Positions 3,232 to 35,210 of a stretch of 64,000 bases of DNA are shown piece after piece (position 1 is the stretch's first letter; each line of letters starts with the position of its first letter). The stretch is taken from contig JBFXJJ010000003.1 of NCBI GenBank assembly GCA_050175015.1, forward strand, positions 1 to 64,000. The letters run 5' to 3'. The position numbers were made by a program, and so were the translations under genes. A model generated the notes under the pieces. It ran no database searches. It worked only from the letters and a program-made list of their open reading frames with translations, and was not told where the DNA came from. The stretch comes from Alphaproteobacteria bacterium. GTDB taxonomy: Bacteria; Pseudomonadota; Alphaproteobacteria; JBFXJJ01.

Positions 3232-4680
3232 TTAGTTTGCCCCTAGTACTTTTATCAGTTCATTTTTTAGGGCATCTCTGGTTGCTTGAAGCGAGCTTGC
3301 TATTTTATGATATTCTTGCATCAGTTCTTCAGGGTCTAAAATTTTTTCAACTTCTTGATGAGGGTTTTTAATATCAAGATTATAGTTTTTATCTTTAATT
3401 TCTTTTGCAGAAACTTTCCAAGCATGTTCATTGGTTTTGCGGTTGTTCCACCAGTTTTTTTCTAAATCAAATTCTTCAATGGTTAGAGGCTTGCTCCTTG
3501 AATAAGACTTATACCCTTCTGGATAGGGGTGTTCAAAAAACCAAATGTCCTTAGTTTTATCGCCTTTTTCAAAAAATAATAAATTGGTGTTTATGCTTGT
3601 ATAGGGGCTAAAAACACCTTTAGGCAATCTTACAATCGTATGAAGGTTAAATTCTTCTAACAATTCTCTTTTAATGGTAGTTTTTACGCCTTCGCCAAAC
3701 AAAAAGCCATCTGGTAAAACTAATGCTCCCCTGCCTGTATCGTGTTTTAAAAGATACATGATAAGTGCTAAAAATAAATCGGCGGTTTCCCTTGTTTGAT
3801 ATTTTTTAGGAAAATTCTTTTCTATGCCGTCTTCTTCCATTCCACCAAAGGGCGGATTGGTTATAACAATATCAACTCTATCTTTGGGACTGTAATCTTT
3901 TAATGGTCGGCTGAGTGTGTTGTCGTGCCTAATGTTGGTTGGAATATCAATGCCGTGTAACATCATATTAGTCATTGCCAGCATATGAGGAAGGGGCTTT
4001 TTTTCTACGCCGTAAATTGTATCTTGCAGTATTTTTGAATCTTCGGCGGTTTTGGTTTGTTTTTTTAGATGCTCAATAGCACAAATTAAAAAACCACCCG
4101 TTCCGCAAGCTGGGTCTAAAATGGTTTCGCCAAGTTTGGGGTTAATTATGTCAACCATAAATTGGGTTACGGCTCTTGGGGTGTAATATTCGCCTGCGTT
4201 GCCTGCGGATTGTAAGTCTGCCAAGATTTTTTCATAAATATCGTTAAATAAATGGCGGTCTTTTGAAGAATTAAAATCAACATCGTCTTCAATGGTGTTT
4301 ATTACTTGCCTTAGCAGTGTGCCTGATTTCATGTAGTTATAGGCATCTTCAAAAACTGAGCCGACAATTCTGCCATGAGGGGAAATGCCTGCTTGGGTTG
4401 CCAGTTTTTTAAAGGCTGGGAAAAGGTCATTGTTTACAAAATCAATCAGCTCTTCGCCTGTTATGCCCTCTGAATCTTTTGCCCAATTAGACCAGCGGAA
4501 ACGACTTTGCAAAGGTGATTTATAATTAGGGATTGTAACTTGCCATTCTTGCTCTTTGTCATCAAAAATCTTTAAAAACAAAAGCCAAACTATCTGGCTA
4601 ATTCTTTGTGCATCGCCATCAACGCCCGTGTCTTTTCGCATTATGTCTTGAATGACTTTTATTAAAGTTGAAATTGGCAT
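3232..4680 (-). CDS. hsdM: Type I RM N6-adenine methyltransferase
   Basis: GEYYTPR, DPACGTGGFL and NPPF motifs. Confidence 0.97.
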   Translation of the reverse strand: MPISTLIKVIQDIMRKDTGVDGDAQRISQIVWLLFLKIFDDKEQEWQVTIPNYKSPLQSRFRWSNWAKDSEGITGEELIDFVNNDLFPAFKKLATQAGISPHGRIVGSVFEDAYNYMKSGTLLRQVINTIEDDVDFNSSKDRHLFNDIYEKILADLQSAGNAGEYYTPRAVTQFMVDIINPKLGETILDPACGTGGFLICAIEHLKKQTKTAEDSKILQDTIYGVEKKPLPHMLAMTNMMLHGIDIPTNIRHDNTLSRPLKDYSPKDRVDIVITNPPFGGMEEDGIEKNFPKKYQTRETADLFLALIMYLLKHDTGRGALVLPDGFLFGEGVKTTIKRELLEEFNLHTIVRLPKGVFSPYTSINTNLLFFEKGDKTKDIWFFEHPYPEGYKSYSRSKPLTIEEFDLEKNWWNNRKTNEHAWKVSAKEIKDKNYNLDIKNPHQEVEKILDPEELMQEYHKIASSLQATRDALKNELIKVLGAN

Positions 4681-9505: not shown

Positions 9506-9976
9506 TCAACAGTTCTTTATTTTTGAGATTTTGGTTCTAAATGAGCAAATCATATTTAAAAGGGCTTCACTTTTTTCTTTATCAATTGCAAAAGTAGATG
9601 TTTCAAAAGTTCCCCCTGTTGCTTTTTTATCTATCTCATTCCAGTCGTTTTGTAGTTCGGATACAAGGCTTGTTTTTATATGTTTATTTCCTAGTGCTGT
9701 TATATTATCTCTGACCTTTTTTATTTCGCTTTTTAGTGTGTTGCCACAGTTAATACGTTCATCTTTCTTTAAATTCTCACTCCAATATTTGCAAGCATTA
9801 CGTACGCATGAATCACAACACATCAATAATTCCGAAGTAAGATAATTAAAATTATTATTATTTTTATTTTTTTGAAAATAACAGTAGCTAACAACAGTGT
9901 TTATCACAAAAATAAATAGGTTTGCTATAATGCTATACCAAGCTATATCTAATTTATTTGACACATTATACCCCAC
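9506..9976 (-). CDS. Hypothetical protein with N-terminal TM helix; last gene of the HATPase-STAS module
   Basis: 156 aa ORF with a hydrophobic N-terminus; overlaps the STAS gene stop. Confidence 0.7.
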   Translation of the reverse strand: MGYNVSNKLDIAWYSIIANLFIFVINTVVSYCYFQKNKNNNNFNYLTSELLMCCDSCVRNACKYWSENLKKDERINCGNTLKSEIKKVRDNITALGNKHIKTSLVSELQNDWNEIDKKATGGTFETSTFAIDKEKSEALLNMICSFRTKISKIKNC

Positions 9977-10289
9977 TTGCTTCTTTTATATAACTCCAGA
10001 TAAGATCGCAAATAGAGTTATCTTTGCAGGTCAGTTTTAATTTCTGTTTTATTTCTTCATATTTCATTTGGTTAACAAGAATCAATCCAGCAAAAGCTTC
10101 ATCCCAAAAAGATGAGCCAACCCCTTCTAAATCATCAAGATTAATTTCTAGCTCTATTATATTTTTATCTTTGAGATTTGGGGTTAAAAAGTTGTTTCTA
10201 AATTTTTCTCCATTAAAAATTCCATCACTTTCATAACGACCTGCTGGTTCTGGCGAAAAATCCTGAGCTATTGATATTGTTTTTTTCAT
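9966..10289 (-). CDS. STAS-like (DUF4325-type) protein
   Basis: IAQDFS.EPAGRY..DG.FNGEKFR..L and INLDDLEGVGSSFWDEAFAGL (phosphoacceptor-like SS). Confidence 0.85.
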   Translation of the reverse strand: MKKTISIAQDFSPEPAGRYESDGIFNGEKFRNNFLTPNLKDKNIIELEINLDDLEGVGSSFWDEAFAGLILVNQMKYEEIKQKLKLTCKDNSICDLIWSYIKEASGV

Positions 10290-10307: not shown

Positions 10308-10460
10308 CTAAATTGGAACTTGCCATTGGATATATGTCCCATTAATTTCCTTTTCATTGTTTTTAACAAATTCCCCTTTATTTTTGTAAACATATTGCCC
10401 TTTCAAGCTATAAATTTGTAATTCTGCACCTAGTTTGTTAACTTTATTTATATAATTTTT
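10308..10460 (-). pseudogene. 3' fragment of the HATPase gene split by IS1595
   Basis: Reads KNYINKVNKLGAELQIYSLKGQYVY...INGTYIQWQVPI*, in frame with 12591-13483 once the IS and one TSD copy are removed. Confidence 0.88.
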
Positions 10461-10538
10461 CACATATATCCCTTTACGTACTTTAAATAATTTTATATAC
10501 TATATATAAAGTACAAAATTATATTAAAGGAATATATT

Positions 10539-11462
10539 ATGAATTTTTTTGATTTTATTAAAAAATTTCCAACAGAAGAAGCTATTATAGATTATTTTAT
10601 AAAGATTAAATATGGCGATGAAATAGTTTGCCCTAAATGTGGAACTAACCATAAAATTTATCAAAAAACAACTCGTAAAAAAGTATTTGATTGCAATTCC
10701 TGTCATAATTCTTTTTCAATTTTTAAAGGAACTATTTTTGAAAAATCTTCAACAGATTTAAGGAAGTGGTTTTATGCTATTCATTTAATGTTAAATTCGA
10801 AAAAGGGTATATCTGGGTTACAACTTCAAAGAGAAATAGATGTAACTTATAAAACAGCTTGGAGAATGCTTAAACAAATTCGTATTGCAATGGGAAACGT
10901 TGATAATAATTATTTTGAAGCTATGGTTGAAATTGATGAAACATATGTTGGGGGCAAACCAAGAAAAAATAATAAACATAAAAATGACGATGATGACTTT
11001 GATGACCATATACCAAACAAAAGGGGTAGAGGGACTAATAAAACTCCTGTAGTAGGATTGAAAGAAAGAAATACAAATAAAGTTCAAATGTTTGTTGCTT
11101 TGCCAAATCAAAAACAACATAAATTATCAGGAAATCAACTTCTTGGTATGATTGATAAAGTATGTAAAAAAGGTTCAACTATAATTAGTGATGAATTTAG
11201 AGGTTACAATATTTTAGATAGAAAAGATAGCAACTATGTTCATTTAAGAATTGACCACACAATTATGTATGCAGATGGTAATATACATACTAATGGAATT
11301 GAATCAGTATGGTCATTAATTAAACGTGGTATCTATGGAATATATCATCACGTTAGTATAAAACATCTTCAAAATTATTTAAACGAATATCAATTTAGAT
11401 TAAATAATAGAACTGAATCTAAAATGTTTGATATTTTATTAAAACAATGTGTAATTGGTTGA
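10539..11462 (+). CDS. IS1595-family DDE transposase
   Basis: Zn finger CPKC..CNSC, SKKGISGLQLQR, VEIDETYVGGK, SDE, HTNGIESVWS, YLNEYQFRLN. Confidence 0.95.
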   Translation: MNFFDFIKKFPTEEAIIDYFIKIKYGDEIVCPKCGTNHKIYQKTTRKKVFDCNSCHNSFSIFKGTIFEKSSTDLRKWFYAIHLMLNSKKGISGLQLQREIDVTYKTAWRMLKQIRIAMGNVDNNYFEAMVEIDETYVGGKPRKNNKHKNDDDDFDDHIPNKRGRGTNKTPVVGLKERNTNKVQMFVALPNQKQHKLSGNQLLGMIDKVCKKGSTIISDEFRGYNILDRKDSNYVHLRIDHTIMYADGNIHTNGIESVWSLIKRGIYGIYHHVSIKHLQNYLNEYQFRLNNRTESKMFDILLKQCVIG

Positions 11463-11492
11463 AAAGGTTAATAGTGCTAACCTTTTCAACCA
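11456..11492. terminator. Hairpin between the convergent transposase and TM2 genes
   Basis: TGGTTGAAAAGGTTA / TAACCTTTTCAACCA perfect 15-bp inverted repeat. Confidence 0.6.
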
Positions 11493-11497
11493 TATAA

Positions 11498-11830
11498 TCA
11501 ATTACGTAACATTTTATGTTCTGCTAAGATGTTCTTTGATATTATATCATTTTTTGTTTTAACTAGACTTGATAATAAAAACAAATCAACAATCCACCAT
11601 ATAATACCAATAAAAACAGCAAATAAAACCCATTGTAGAAACTGCATAGAAATACGGTCTACATAAAATCTATGACAACAAATAAACCATAAGCATATAG
11701 CTCCTAACAAGGTTTTCCTCTTCTTCCCATATTCATCAGCAAACATTTGCCTAACAGCATCATCTTCTTTGACTAATTGAGATTTAACTATCATTGAAAG
11801 TTCTTTTTCAATTTCTGCGTAAGATGTCAT
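11498..11830 (-). CDS. TM2-domain membrane protein (IS passenger)
   Basis: KKRKTLLGAICLWFICCHRFYV...GIIWWIVDLFLL resembles the TM2 G-x-HRFY / W-x-x-D pattern. Confidence 0.75.
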   Translation of the reverse strand: MTSYAEIEKELSMIVKSQLVKEDDAVRQMFADEYGKKRKTLLGAICLWFICCHRFYVDRISMQFLQWVLFAVFIGIIWWIVDLFLLSSLVKTKNDIISKNILAEHKMLRN

Positions 11831-11884
11831 TCTTTTCTAAACTCCCATTTTTAATTTAATAAAAAACCACCAGTTTTTAAGTGG

Positions 11885-11966
11885 TGGTTGGGAGTTAGTA
11901 GAACCGTATTCCGAAAACGGTGCAGTGCTTTCAAGCATACACCTTTATAACACTGCCTCCCAACCA
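11885..11966 (-). ncRNA. C4-type antisense RNA (P1 c4 / P4 CI-like)
   Basis: Outer stem TGGTTGGGAG..CTCCCAACCA enclosing two inner hairpins (GCAGTG..CACTGC and ACCGT..ACGGT) and an unpaired TTCTACTAA; followed by a U-tailed hairpin at 11861-11888. Confidence 0.7.
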
Positions 11967-12025
11967 TAATGGTTTAAGAGACAATATTTATTTTTCGACC
12001 TAATGCCTTTGGTCGTCAGAATAAA

Positions 12026-12064
12026 GGAGCTACTAAACTCCAGAATGTAGATTTTGCTACATTC
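12026..12064 (-). promoter_or_regulatory. c4 a1/b1-like target hairpins, downstream of a putative promoter (TTGTAT-17-TAATCT, ~12072-12102)
   Basis: Minus strand GAATGTAGCAAAATCTACATTC-TGGAGTTTAGTAGCTCC: GCAAAATC-loop hairpin followed by a hairpin complementary to the C4 loop. Confidence 0.65.
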
Positions 12065-12155
12065 CGAAAGTTAGATTAATTTAATTATTGATAAAATACA
12101 AGTTAAAGAAGATAATTGTATTTTATTCATATACTTTTTTAGAAAGGGTAAGAAA

Positions 12156-12392
12156 ATGGGACCGCTTACATTTGAATATTCTAAAGATGTTGATGTTAAT
12201 CCTGTTATGCATCATATTTTAATTAAAAAAGAAAATGGCGAAGCATTAACATTATTTACATCACCAGAGCTCGAATTAACTAAATTTAATGTAAAATCAG
12301 CAATGAGAATGCTTAAATATTTTGATGTAATAGATGAAGAAGATTATTTTCTTGGTAACCAAAAGTTAGATTCTTTTACATCAGAAGAATAA
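12156..12392 (+). CDS. Hypothetical protein (IS passenger)
   Basis: 78 aa ORF preceded by an AAGGG RBS-like sequence. Confidence 0.55.
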   Translation: MGPLTFEYSKDVDVNPVMHHILIKKENGEALTLFTSPELELTKFNVKSAMRMLKYFDVIDEEDYFLGNQKLDSFTSEE

Positions 12393-12499
12393 CTATTAAT
12401 ATATGCTCTAAGAAGTACTCTAGCAAATTCTGGATTGTTACTTTCTTCAAGGTAATATAATATATCTTTAAGATTTTCTACCGTATATATTGTTTTCAT
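12344..12499 (-). CDS. Small hypothetical protein, 51 aa (IS passenger)
   Basis: MKTIYTVENLKDILYYLEESNNPEFARVLLRAYINSYSSDVKESNFWLPRK*, AGGAG RBS; below the ORF-track cutoff. Confidence 0.45.
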   Translation of the reverse strand: MKTIYTVENLKDILYYLEESNNPEFARVLLRAYINSYSSDVKESNFWLPRK

Positions 12500-12590
12500 T
12501 TTTAACTCCTATATAATTTTTTTTATTCATTATTATTTATATTTATAAATAACTATATATTGAGCAAAAGTATGTTAAGGGATATGTGTG

Positions 12591-13483
12591 TAATTTTTTA
12601 TATCTAACAAACCTCTGCCCCTATTTGTTTTCTTTGTTGAGGTTCTTTTGGTTCTGGTTGCAGCCTGTATAATTTCGGCATCTCCTGTGAACCCAGCAAT
12701 AGATTTGAACAACTCAGGCCATGTTTTTGGCAACGTTTTAGGAATTCCTACCCCTTCATCATAAAACATAACAGTTAAAATTTTGTTTCTTAAATTAATA
12801 GATGCAGACATCCACCATAATTTCTCTTTTATCATATTATTTTGTAAATATTCTATAGGATAAGCGTGGTGTATTGAGTTGGTCATAGCTTCTGTTAGCC
12901 CCGCTTGTAATTGTTGCCCCTCAGGAAAGTATGTCAATTCAGATATAAGTTTTTTTAATTTTGTTACATCTTCCCCTGAAGCCATATAACCAGATTGAAA
13001 TTTTAAGAATATTTCATCTGTTTTATTTTCAATATTATTGAAATTTTGAGGAACATTTTTTACATCTAAAATTTCAAACATTCCCATATCTCGCAGTTGT
13101 AATTTAACATTTTCATTCCATGATTCAAAATCAAGAACAGATAAGTTAAATTTTTTAAATAATCGTGTTTTTTTAATTCTATCGATTTCGGCAGTAAAAA
13201 TTAGAGCTGCTGCTGGAGATATGTTTTGTATTTTTGTAAAGTCGATTTTAAAAGGAGATGTTCTGTCTGTACAGAGTTTCCTTAATTTATTAAAAAAAGT
13301 AGCGGTTTCTTCGTAGTTTTCTTGCAAATTCATATTTGTTGGAGCGACTAAAACTCTATTTTGGGTTCTTTCAGTAATTGCTTTTAATGTAATATATTTA
13401 TACTTCCTTTTAACTCTATTACAAAATGATCTTTTGGCATATTCTACCCAATATCTTTTTTGTTTTTCAGAAAGTTTTTTCAT
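12591..13483 (-). pseudogene. STAS-like + GHKL/HATPase protein, 5' part, interrupted by IS1595
   Basis: N box LTEAMTNSIHHAY, G1 FYDEGVGIPKTL, G2 NRGRGL; the ORF-track tail THIP* is IS IR sequence. Confidence 0.88.
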
Positions 13484-13587: not shown

Positions 13588-15150
13588 TCACATACTCATA
13601 CCGAAGCCGTAGCCTTTACTTTTAGAAAGGGCGAGTTCTTTTTCTTTTAGGTGTTCTTTATAGCTTTGGTGCATTTTTTGATAAAATTCATCGTTGGTTT
13701 TTAGGGTTTCTTTGATGGCTTTATAAGTTTCATCATCTTTTTTAAGTTCAGTTTTTAGCTCTTTCATCATATCATCAATGGTTTTGCTTTTAGTTCTTTC
13801 TGCATTTAGCGTATCAGATATTTTATCATAAACAAAAGAGGGGATACTTACTTTTCCTCCAAGCTCTTCAATGGCAATAACTTTTGATACAGCATATTTG
13901 CCATCTTCAAGATAATAGAATTTGTTTTTATTATCATATTTAGCAATCGCTTTGATTGCTTCTTGAGCTTCTGGTTTTTGAGGCATTTCAACATAAAAAA
14001 TTGCAGGTTCTACGGTTGGCTTAACGTCAGCTTTAATTTTTGGTTTTGTTTGAGACCGTATTTCTGTTTTAAAGCTTTTTATTGTGGGTTGGCTTTTTTT
14101 ATCAGCATTTAGAAATAATGCGTTTATTAGTTTCTTCTGGGCAACAATAACTGCCATTGCAAATGGATCTTTTAAGGCTTCTGCCATTAAAAAATCTTTC
14201 CAAGTATAAAAAGCTTTTTTGAGTAAGGATTGCTCTTTGGTTTTTGCTTTTGGTTTCTTTTTAACTTCTTGATATTTTTGCCATAAAATAGGCGTGTTAG
14301 GGTGTTTGGTTAAGGGTTTTTCGGTATAGGTTCTTTTGGGTTCAACTATATGAGCAGATTCCTCAAATTTACCCAGTCTTTTTTCAAGAGCATTTTTAGA
14401 AAAAGTCCTGTCTAAATCAGAAGCCTTAATCGCAATCTTTTTATCTTTAGATACGATAGCTAAACCATTGCCTCGTTTTTTAAGAAGCAAACCAACTTCT
14501 TCAAAAGCATTATGTATGTCTTGCCATTTTTGAGCTTGGTTTAATGCTTTGGTTAAGGGTTCTTTTTGCTCTTTAACATAAGAATAAAAACTTTGTTGCC
14601 AAGTTTTAGCTTCAAAGTCTCTCGCTTTCTCGTGAGGCTTTTCATAATTTGGCTCTTTAGTTTTTTCAATGCCATTATCAACTTTAAGATTATACTTCTT
14701 CTCCATATCTCGGCAGACTTTTGAGCGTTTGTAATAATCGTTTGATAAGGTCGCAACTTTAAAGGTTTCTGGGTTTATTTTATTATAGGCAATATGCATA
14801 TGAAAGTTATCAGTGTTTTGATGAGTGCCGACAACTCTTTGATGAGTTTCTATACCAAGTGCTTTGGCAAATTCTTTCTCAATTTCTTTTAGGGTTTTTA
14901 AGTCGGGCTTTTCATTTTTAAAAGATACTAATAAATGATAAGTTTTATCAACCCTGCACCGGGTATTTCGGCTTTGAGTGTTTTCAATATCAATGATGGC
15001 TAATTCTAAATCATCAAGAGTTTCTCCAGCATCAGAGTTGACAATCCAAAAATCAGATAGTTTTTCGCCATCGTCTTCAGCTCCTGCGATATATTTAGCA
15101 AGCCTTCTAAAACTGCTTTTAGTTGTTCTTGGAATATGTTTAGAAATCAT
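13588..15150 (-). CDS. MOBP-family relaxase
   Basis: LAKYI (catalytic Tyr), YHLLVSF, HQNTDNFHMHIAYN; basic C-terminal tail SKSKGYGFGMSM. Confidence 0.9.
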   Translation of the reverse strand: MISKHIPRTTKSSFRRLAKYIAGAEDDGEKLSDFWIVNSDAGETLDDLELAIIDIENTQSRNTRCRVDKTYHLLVSFKNEKPDLKTLKEIEKEFAKALGIETHQRVVGTHQNTDNFHMHIAYNKINPETFKVATLSNDYYKRSKVCRDMEKKYNLKVDNGIEKTKEPNYEKPHEKARDFEAKTWQQSFYSYVKEQKEPLTKALNQAQKWQDIHNAFEEVGLLLKKRGNGLAIVSKDKKIAIKASDLDRTFSKNALEKRLGKFEESAHIVEPKRTYTEKPLTKHPNTPILWQKYQEVKKKPKAKTKEQSLLKKAFYTWKDFLMAEALKDPFAMAVIVAQKKLINALFLNADKKSQPTIKSFKTEIRSQTKPKIKADVKPTVEPAIFYVEMPQKPEAQEAIKAIAKYDNKNKFYYLEDGKYAVSKVIAIEELGGKVSIPSFVYDKISDTLNAERTKSKTIDDMMKELKTELKKDDETYKAIKETLKTNDEFYQKMHQSYKEHLKEKELALSKSKGYGFGMSM

Positions 15151-18121: not shown

Positions 18122-18211
18122 TGGCGGAGAGAGAGGGATTCGAACCCTCGGAACCCGTAAGAGTTCAACGGTTTTCGAGACCGCCCCGTTCGACCACTCC
18201 GGCATCTCTCC
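18122..18211 (-). tRNA. tRNA-Ser(CGA)
   Basis: GGAGAGATGCCGGAGTGG..CT-CGA-AA, long variable arm, GGTTCGAATCC..CCGCCA. Confidence 0.96.
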
Positions 18212-35119: not shown

Positions 35120-35210
35120 GGAGAGGTGGCCGAGTGGTCGAAGGCGCACGATTGGAAATCGTGTGTGCGGCAAAACCGTACCGAGGGTTCGAATCCCTCT
35201 CTCTCCGCCA
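35120..35210 (+). tRNA. tRNA-Ser(GGA)
   Basis: GGAGAGGTGGCCGAGTGG..TT-GGA-AA, long variable arm, GGTTCGAATCC..CCGCCA. Confidence 0.96.

Follow-up and report, generated by a model that had tools for sequence, protein, structure and literature searches.

Phage C4 RNAs and the bacterial RNA sRNA-Xcc1 are the described systems closest to the locus reported here, an RNA cassette that precedes a TM2-domain membrane protein gene within an insertion sequence (IS) of an alphaproteobacterium. The locus lies in contig JBFXJJ010000003.1 of assembly GCA_050175015.1, and the window, that is, the whole stretch analyzed, comprises positions 1 to 64,000 of this contig. In the immI operon of phage P1, the annotated order is promoter, a1, b1, c4 RNA, a2, b2, and icd. 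The small RNA (sRNA) sRNA-Xcc1 was reportedly named trans-acting in the title of Chen et al. 2011, and IS1595-family insertion sequences carrying passenger genes are said to have been described by Siguier, Gagnevin and Chandler in 2009. According to the accessible part of PMC5320573, RNase P cuts C4 from a longer transcript at a GGW site, the strands a' and b' bind the target, and Acinetobacter baumannii holds multicopy chromosomal C4-like sRNAs that are cut from longer transcripts and have a variable a'. The accessible part of PMC2996969 gives sRNA-Xcc1 as a discrete RNA of 88 nucleotides (nt) mapped in Xanthomonas campestris, and that of bioRxiv 10.1101/2025.06.18.660453 places it in integron cassettes, upstream of the toxin gene symE; the discrete RNA and the placement before symE both fit the mechanism proposed below.

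The cassette and the TM2 gene form a minus-strand module inside a 2,130-base-pair (bp) element of the IS1595 family (10461-12590). With a probability of roughly 0.6, this element carries a complete C4/sRNA-Xcc1-type antisense-RNA cassette in front of the TM2 gene as its cargo. The cassette is probably of a divergent C4/sRNA-Xcc1 type, and the C4 reading proposed earlier from the letters of the window (the sequence-only reading) is largely right. The promoter, the two hairpins, the cloverleaf-like RNA at 11885-11966, the terminator, and the ribosome-binding site (RBS) of the TM2 gene that it had described are all present on the minus strand. Transposase domains, inverted repeats, and an 8-bp duplication bear out the IS1595-family element, and the cassette is located between the inverted repeats, in agreement with the claim that the IS captured the switch. 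As modelled, the RNA most likely keeps the TM2 gene off. The parts are listed below in the order of transcription.

12101-12096 and 12078-12073, minus strand: putative sigma-70-type promoter, −35 TTGTAT, 17-nt spacer, −10 TAATCT
12042-12065, minus strand: leader hairpin, 9 bp, loop CAAAAU
12026-12041, minus strand: a1 hairpin GGAG-UUUAGUAG-CUCC, 4 bp with an 8-nt loop; 12041-12030 pair with a' in the four-way junction
12016-12023, minus strand: b1, UAUUCUGA, aligned with b1 of P1
11996-12015, minus strand: short conserved hairpin CGACC...GGUCG, helix 4 of the covariation set
11970-11988, minus strand: 5' arm of a long G.U-rich hairpin, helix 5 of the covariation set
11885-11966, minus strand: C4/sRNA-Xcc1-like three-way junction, with closing helix 11966-11957:11894-11885, hairpin 1, and hairpin 2 (CCGU/ACGG)
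11907-11916, minus strand: b', the loop of hairpin 2, pairing with b1 in the four-way junction
11889-11903, minus strand: a', the switching strand UUCUACUAACUCCCA; it can pair with a1, with a2/RBS, or with the 5' strand of the closing helix
11860-11889, minus strand: intrinsic terminator, 8-bp stem (11889-11866), 9-nt loop, U run
11835-11847, minus strand: a2, the TM2 RBS region UGGGAGUUUAGAA, complementary to a'
11498-11830, minus strand: TM2-domain membrane protein gene, 110 amino acids (aa), presumed regulated cargo

The window promoter is weak by consensus and remained under the threshold of the promoter scan; its position is the same as that of the TTGAC(G/T)-17-TAnnnT promoter of the relatives. 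The exact CAAAAU loop occurred in 5 of 17 family members, including four copies of one genome (G002), and a loop of this type is also present in the c4-a1b1 and isrK consensus. The branched structure extends to 11891, and UGGGAGUUUAGAA begins 12 nt after the terminator.

The folding check suggested with the sequence-only reading returned a stable minus-strand fold. The 218-nt RNA (12075-11858) had an energy of −80.1 kcal/mol compared with −44.6 ± 4.0 kcal/mol for 200 shuffled sequences (z −8.8), none of which folded as well. The opposite strand reached −64.5 kcal/mol (z −6.1), so the minus strand was better by 15.6 kcal/mol, and 8 of the 73 pairs in its fold were G.U. The energy far below the shuffled sequences, the advantage of the minus strand, and the G.U pairs indicate a minus-strand RNA and not a chance cluster of hairpins.

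Relatives were collected with covariance models, of which R1 was built from the window copy alone and R2 from three sequences without phage, while R3 represents only the 3' half. R1 detected a relative in G002 (54.9 bits, E 8e-12) and a weak one in G119. R2 matched in 10 of 151 genomes sampled across the class, the window's own genome (G000) included, with four copies in G002, three in G023, and two in G055. The Rfam model of sRNA-Xcc1 (RF02221) matched the 3' halves of 12 of 15 relative loci with 28-44 bits, using the three-way junction described below as fold B; these scores are below its 53-bit gathering score, which was exceeded in none of five genomes. Upon retesting of 15 further places with sub-threshold RF02221 matches, R2 confirmed 12 at E < 0.01 and one at E 0.036. 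In total, about 30 relatives were found among the sampled alphaproteobacterial genomes. The window's own genome has a second copy (L180, G000:C45:2295-2476), which precedes a Mrr_cat_2-ResIII restriction enzyme gene, and a third copy (L204, G000:C1:281050-281216) without an open reading frame (ORF) directly behind it. A 25-nt match at G000:C1:172658 was ruled out as a further copy; it is an unrelated terminator-like stretch. In BLAST-level searches, the window copy was the only one in its own genome, and no match was obtained in 60 class-level relatives, plasmids, and phages.

Covariation supported two structures. In fold A, a four-way junction, a long closing stem joins a1 to a' in its outer part (12041-12030:11901-11891) and b1 to b' in its inner part (12023-12016:11914-11907). 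Over 17 sequences, 88.7% of the cells were paired, compared with 61.8% in shuffled sets (0/500 as high) and 41-46% in slid controls. Both-sided changes were observed in 48 of 54 pairs; helix 1 (a1:a') covaried in 10 of its 11 pairs, and helix 3 (b1:b') in all eight, with 100% pairing. Fold B is a three-way junction, in which the 3' arm of the long hairpin (11966-11957) pairs with 11894-11885 as a new closing helix. Its span is exactly that of the cloverleaf drawn by the sequence-only reading (11885-11966), and the isolated 3' fragment 11966-11885 adopted it with −41.4 kcal/mol (z −4.95). In a MAFFT alignment of 16 sequences, unfitted to the structure and without L180 (which has a 40-nt insertion), 92.7% of the fold B cells were paired, compared with 79.3% in shuffled sets (0/500) and 36-63% in slid controls, and both-sided changes were found in 14 of 21 pairs. 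RNAalifold gave the same three fold B helices. The stem of hairpin 2 changes from CCGU/ACGG to CCAU/AUGG in 3 of the 17 sequences. In the predicted fold of the precursor, the 5' strand of the C4-like closing helix is masked, since it forms the 3' arm of the long hairpin and pairs there with the 5' arm. The sequence-only reading had named a missing Rfam match and missing covariation among homologues jointly as an outcome that would speak against it; covariation is present, and only the Rfam half of this pair is true.

The switching strand a' forms duplexes of −16.1 kcal/mol with a1 (GGAGUUUAGUAG), −16.2 kcal/mol with the RBS region a2, and −19.0 kcal/mol with the closing strand of fold B. When read-through RNA was modelled, the RBS was masked: the unpaired probability of GGGAG was at most 0.01, with a' as its main partner (p 0.61). 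The a':RBS complementarity was compared with permuted pairings in 11 representatives, one per genome plus the second copy of the window's own genome. The cognate mean was −12.5 kcal/mol, the permuted mean −9.0 kcal/mol, and none of 20,000 permutations reached the cognate value; the window copy (−15.6 kcal/mol) ranked first of the 11. For the closing helix of fold B, the cognate value was −15.3 kcal/mol and the permuted value −11.8 kcal/mol, reached by 6 of 20,000 permutations. The sequence-only reading had called the a' segment exposed, which does not hold: in the intact transcript it is paired with its upstream copy, and in read-through RNA with the RBS. The a1b1-c4-a2b2 layout that it had proposed was retained in part. 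Four pairings (a1:a', b1:b', a':RBS, and the three-way junction) covary, and b2 was not found.

In a comparison with phage genomes, R2 aligned with the C4 locus of P1. The best match of R2 in the 49.8-kb phage P1 was at 3251-3404 (25 bits, E 1.9e-4; runner-up 11.8 bits), and Rfam detected C4, c4-a1b1, and, below threshold, isrK in P1 immI. In the alignment of R2 with P1, the outer stem corresponds to a1:a' and the inner stem to b1:b', matching the P1 annotation, and the c4 closing helix has its 5' strand aligned with the 3' arm of the long hairpin. In phage APSE-1, the first-ranked R2 match covers the C4/isrK/c4-a1b1 locus with 13 bits and a non-significant E of 0.19. Descent shared with C4 is plausible and, as far as sequence comparison goes, weakly supported.

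All 17 copies analyzed in detail follow a common plan, in which a sigma-70-like promoter is followed by a hairpin that directly adjoins the first helix, and then by the branched RNA. In 14 of them the start codon stands 52-63 nt past the RNA, with space for a terminator hairpin with a U run and then an RBS. Behind the relatives we found genes for a DNA methylase, two outer-membrane beta-barrel proteins, a lipoprotein, and small HTH_31 proteins, and the G002 cassettes precede a family of small proteins without an assigned function. G023 has at least 10 pilin-like paralogues (N-terminus MNRTQKGS..VEA; L185, L189, L190, L193, L195, L197-L200, and L206), each behind a cassette with a different a1/a', an arrangement that looks like addressable control of a family of surface-protein genes. 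The downstream genes are thus unrelated to one another and do not form the coherent regulon expected of a metabolite riboswitch. This diversity of cargo argues against such a riboswitch and fits a portable antisense lock. In G055 (C23, 3556-5440), two near-identical cassettes (L182 and L188) occur 1.7 kb apart; behind each of them an HTH_31 protein of 80 aa is encoded, and a tRNA gene is found immediately downstream.

The covariation of both folds would also be expected of a cis-only two-state leader of the attenuator or riboswitch type, in which a ligand, a protein, or a physical cue shifts the folds and with them read-through and RBS access, and no processed trans-acting RNA is formed. In its favor, the closing helix of fold B shares five nt (11889-11885) with the 5' arm of the terminator, and some unpaired positions are invariant. 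In two G023 copies (L185 and L189), moreover, the RBS is about 10 nt and the start codon 23-24 nt past the RNA; this leaves no room for a terminator, and the RNA there is therefore simply a 5' untranslated region. We nevertheless consider a cis-only leader rather unlikely. A cargo that ranges over methylase, restriction enzyme, beta-barrel, pilin-like, HTH, and TM2 proteins is unlike a metabolite regulon, and the variability of the address helices (a1:a' and a':RBS) is what antisense pairing, and not a ligand pocket, typically shows. In addition, the two folds are 14 kcal/mol apart in the intact RNA.

The promoter-like site and the terminator of its own would suit an independent gene for a trans-acting sRNA with targets elsewhere, of the kind claimed for sRNA-Xcc1, to which the TM2 gene would be adjacent only incidentally, and the third copy in the same genome (L204) indeed has no ORF directly behind it. 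This explanation is improbable, given that the cognate a':RBS complementarity exceeded all 20,000 permutations and that in 14 of 17 loci the start codon keeps a fixed distance of 52-63 nt from the RNA.

The features of the carrier element besides the cassette are the following.

10453-10460, no strand: target-site duplication, left copy, TAATTTTT, 8 bp
10461-10490, plus strand: left terminal inverted repeat, 23 of 30 positions matching the right end
10539-11462, plus strand: transposase, 307 aa, DDE_Tnp_IS1595 (E 4e-35) and Zn_ribbon_IS1595 (E 3e-8)
11456-11492, no strand: perfect inverted repeat of 15 bp, located between the transposase gene and the convergent TM2 gene, likely a two-way terminator hairpin
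12156-12392, plus strand: ORF of 78 aa, no family match, coding status uncertain
12344-12499, minus strand: ORF of 51 aa, no family match, strong RBS AGGAGUUAAA at 12510-12501
12561-12590, minus strand: right terminal inverted repeat
12591-12598, no strand: target-site duplication, right copy, TAATTTTT, 8 bp

The zinc ribbon, the DDE_Tnp_IS1595 domain, the inverted repeats, and the 8-bp duplication assign the element to the IS1595 family, for which an 8-bp target duplication is typical. The best relatives of the transposase have 60-65% identity. In-silico excision of the IS extended the interrupted ORF from 302 to 345 aa. This ORF (minus strand, 9966-10289 and 12575-13483) is a homologue of histidine-kinase-like ATPases with a weak HATPase_c_2 match; the IS breaks its 3' end, and a gene for a DUF4325 (STAS-like) protein is located directly downstream of it. 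Because the 8-bp duplication is perfect, the insertion into this ATPase/DUF4325 two-gene module appears to be recent. A MobA/VirD2 relaxase with a TraI middle domain (13588-15150, minus strand) adjoins the IS, which therefore lies within a mobilisable island. The 2.5-Mb assembly contains the element as a single copy, without the further copies that would be a sign of mobility. In a look-up of sequencing runs, the stretch was present in no RNA run and in a single DNA run, from a landfill metagenome that may be its source. Two tRNA genes with long variable arms are present in the window at 18125-18211 (minus strand) and 35120-35207 (plus strand).

The string AGGAGUUAAA that serves as the RBS of the 51-aa ORF is identical to the RBS behind the four G002 cassettes and is complementary to a' over 7 nt. 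This site may thus serve the RNA as a further target, or the match may be due to chance.

The survey of related IS loci that the sequence-only reading had proposed did not recover the motif. Among 160 loci with a related transposase (80 from metagenomes and 80 from viral contigs), tblastn and blastn detected no relative of the passenger gene or of the RNA, and the RNA was found neither by R1 (44 of the 160 loci) nor by R2 (all 160, E ≤ 1). Conversely, a related transposase was within about 1.5 kb of none of the 16 other family copies. These two observations indicate that the IS acquired a single cassette together with its cargo. It is therefore very improbable that the RNA serves the IS itself, as a regulator of the transposase or as a guide or bridge RNA for transposition; its position between the inverted repeats would suit such a role, while its absence from the 160 loci, the 16 copies without a transposase nearby, and its orientation (it points away from the transposase gene, from which the TM2 gene separates it) are opposed to it. 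A DNA-level element (recombination site or origin) or a chance hairpin cluster in AT-rich DNA, for which the good fold of the plus strand (z −6.1) might be cited, is hardly credible, as eight G.U pairs put the minus-strand fold 15.6 kcal/mol ahead, covariation retains G.U pairs on one strand only, and its placement between promoter and terminator is conserved.

The TM2 protein matched Pfam PF05154 with E 7.7e-6 and 26.5 bits, just under the cut-off of 27.9 bits. It also matched four PHROG families of similar length and unassigned function (best E 3.9e-8). In the search for close relatives, a word-indexed protein search returned only the protein itself, and viral contigs gave none. Seven distant TM2 genes (Dialister, Fusicatenibacter) were found, none of them with the RNA.

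Several results weigh against the reading as a C4-type cassette. The cmscan match to C4, c4-2, or c4-a1b1 expected by the sequence-only reading was absent for the window copy, and the models C4, c4-2, c4-a1b1, sRNA-Xcc1, and isrK gave no match at E ≤ 10 on segments of 1,001 nt and 231 nt. The window copy was likewise missed when RF02221 and RF03163 were run over whole genomes. R2 had no match at the C4 locus of phage P4 and none in 150 genomes sampled across the phylum, and the match of R3 to the c4 RNA of P1 was not significant (9.1 bits, E 2.7, rank 4 of 19). Near the start codon no b2 site was recognized: the cognate value for b' was −3.8 kcal/mol, the permuted value −4.6 kcal/mol, and 19,569 of 20,000 permutations were as good or better. 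The fold A alignment was fitted to the structure of the model and therefore leans towards it, and the three-genome and four-copy paralogue sets are not independent. Finally, fold A beats fold B by 14 kcal/mol in the intact transcript, so the C4-like form would need processing. Rfam 15 at gathering thresholds, run over the whole window, gave no match in the cassette region, and RF03163 yielded only noise in five genomes (best E 0.75), in a run whose controls were detected in 14 of 14 genomes.

In the C4/sRNA-Xcc1-type cassette that we favor, a single promoter would drive the leader hairpin, the decoy (a1 and b1), two hairpins, and a core ending in the terminator. Most transcripts would end at this terminator, which would limit read-through, and fold as the four-way junction with a1:a' and b1:b'. 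Transcripts that read through would carry the TM2 RBS (a2), held shut by a'. By analogy with P1 C4, the precursor may be cut in the loop of the long hairpin, between UUAU and GGU, and release the 3' 82 nt. The released RNA would refold to a tRNA-like three-way junction with a' partly exposed, and could repress the RBS not only in cis but also in trans. The a1b1 decoy would compete for a' at nearly equal energy and so set a threshold. The net result would be a low translation of TM2. Processing and trans action are thus proposed from the phage analogy, and the direction of control and the role of TM2 are what we infer for this locus.

Going further, these cassettes might be a portable 'self-addressed' gene lock derived from phage C4 immunity, an idea to which we give low odds. 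Each cassette would bring its own address (a1 = a2, read by a') and a self-masked precursor that is armed only by processing. In a naive cell, the newly arrived gene, here TM2, would be expressed in a brief burst, until enough antisense RNA has accumulated to silence it. Where a genome has at least 10 differently addressed copies in front of paralogous surface proteins, they could choose which paralogue is expressed.

C4-like RNAs on mobile DNA are already known. New are the cassette within an IS1595-family element together with a TM2 gene, the part-by-part mapping onto the sites of P1, and the absence of b2; in literature titles and abstracts we found no report of a C4-type RNA as IS cargo. 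The proposed cassette places a whole C4-type control unit, with decoy, antisense core, and target, outside phages and in an alphaproteobacterial insertion sequence. It also links a large RNA family that is absent from Rfam, and that occurs before surface, restriction-modification, and regulator genes, to the mechanism of P1, and it accounts for sRNA-Xcc1-like RNAs that ride on mobile DNA. A testable model is thereby offered for dozens to hundreds of unannotated leaders, and the design is that of a compact repressor, retargetable by editing about 12 nucleotides.

Compared with known IS1595-family elements with passenger genes, the element has the same zinc-ribbon DDE_Tnp_IS1595 transposase, terminal inverted repeats, 8-bp duplication, and extra genes inside. 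Its passengers differ, being a regulatory RNA cassette and a membrane-protein gene, both of which are missing from all of the 160 related loci.

The C4-like sRNAs of A. baumannii differ from the present RNA in that the Rfam C4 model recognises them and that, in the accessible part of their description, they are not presented as leaders of the next gene.

The sRNA-Xcc1 family (RF02221) shares with the window RNA the three-way junction and a conserved GCCGU...ACGGUU hairpin. The Rfam model is confined to the 3' half; the unit described here also includes a conserved 5' half, with a1, b1, and two hairpins. In its description, sRNA-Xcc1 is a trans-acting RNA to which no targets are assigned.

The stretch of P1, P4, and APSE-1 that is covered by the model of isrK (RF01394), an RNA of Salmonella Gifsy-1, consists of a hairpin with the loop GCAAAAUC, a second hairpin, and a terminator, and corresponds to window positions 12065-12026; the window gave no isrK match and has no terminator after b1. 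The isrK and c4-a1b1 models cover one and the same stretch upstream of C4 in P4 (L207, 1616-1706), in APSE-1 (L208, 28185-28276), and in P1. Because of this overlap, the two models may describe one element, although isrK is placed outside the C4 clan.

The last comparison is with the immI operon of phages P1 and P7 (C4 RF01695 and c4-a1b1 RF03163, clan CL00128). The differences concern host, carrier, and details of the RNA. The window RNA belongs to an alphaproteobacterium and an insertion sequence, the P1 RNA to a phage immunity operon. The closing helix has 10 bp in the window and about 17 in P1 C4, and hairpin 1 is longer in the window and has an internal loop. An intrinsic terminator stands between RNA and target in the window and not in P1, and the window has a2 only, compared with a2 and b2 in P1. 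The likenesses begin with the order of the parts, which is the same, and their similar spacing. The c4-a1b1 consensus has a hairpin with the loop GCaAAAUC (GCAAAAUC), followed by a 4-bp hairpin with the 8-nt a1 loop UUUGGCAG; compared by eye, CAAAAU and UUUAGUAG take these two positions in the window. As in C4, the core forms a three-way junction; the loop of hairpin 2 contains b', and a' occupies the junction ahead of the closing strand. Both cores start with UUAUGGU(U/G)GGG, which reads UUAU-GGUGGGG in P1 c4 and UUAUGGUUGGG in the window. Moreover, both systems have a target that overlaps the RBS of the following gene; in P1 the product of this gene is a small harmful protein.

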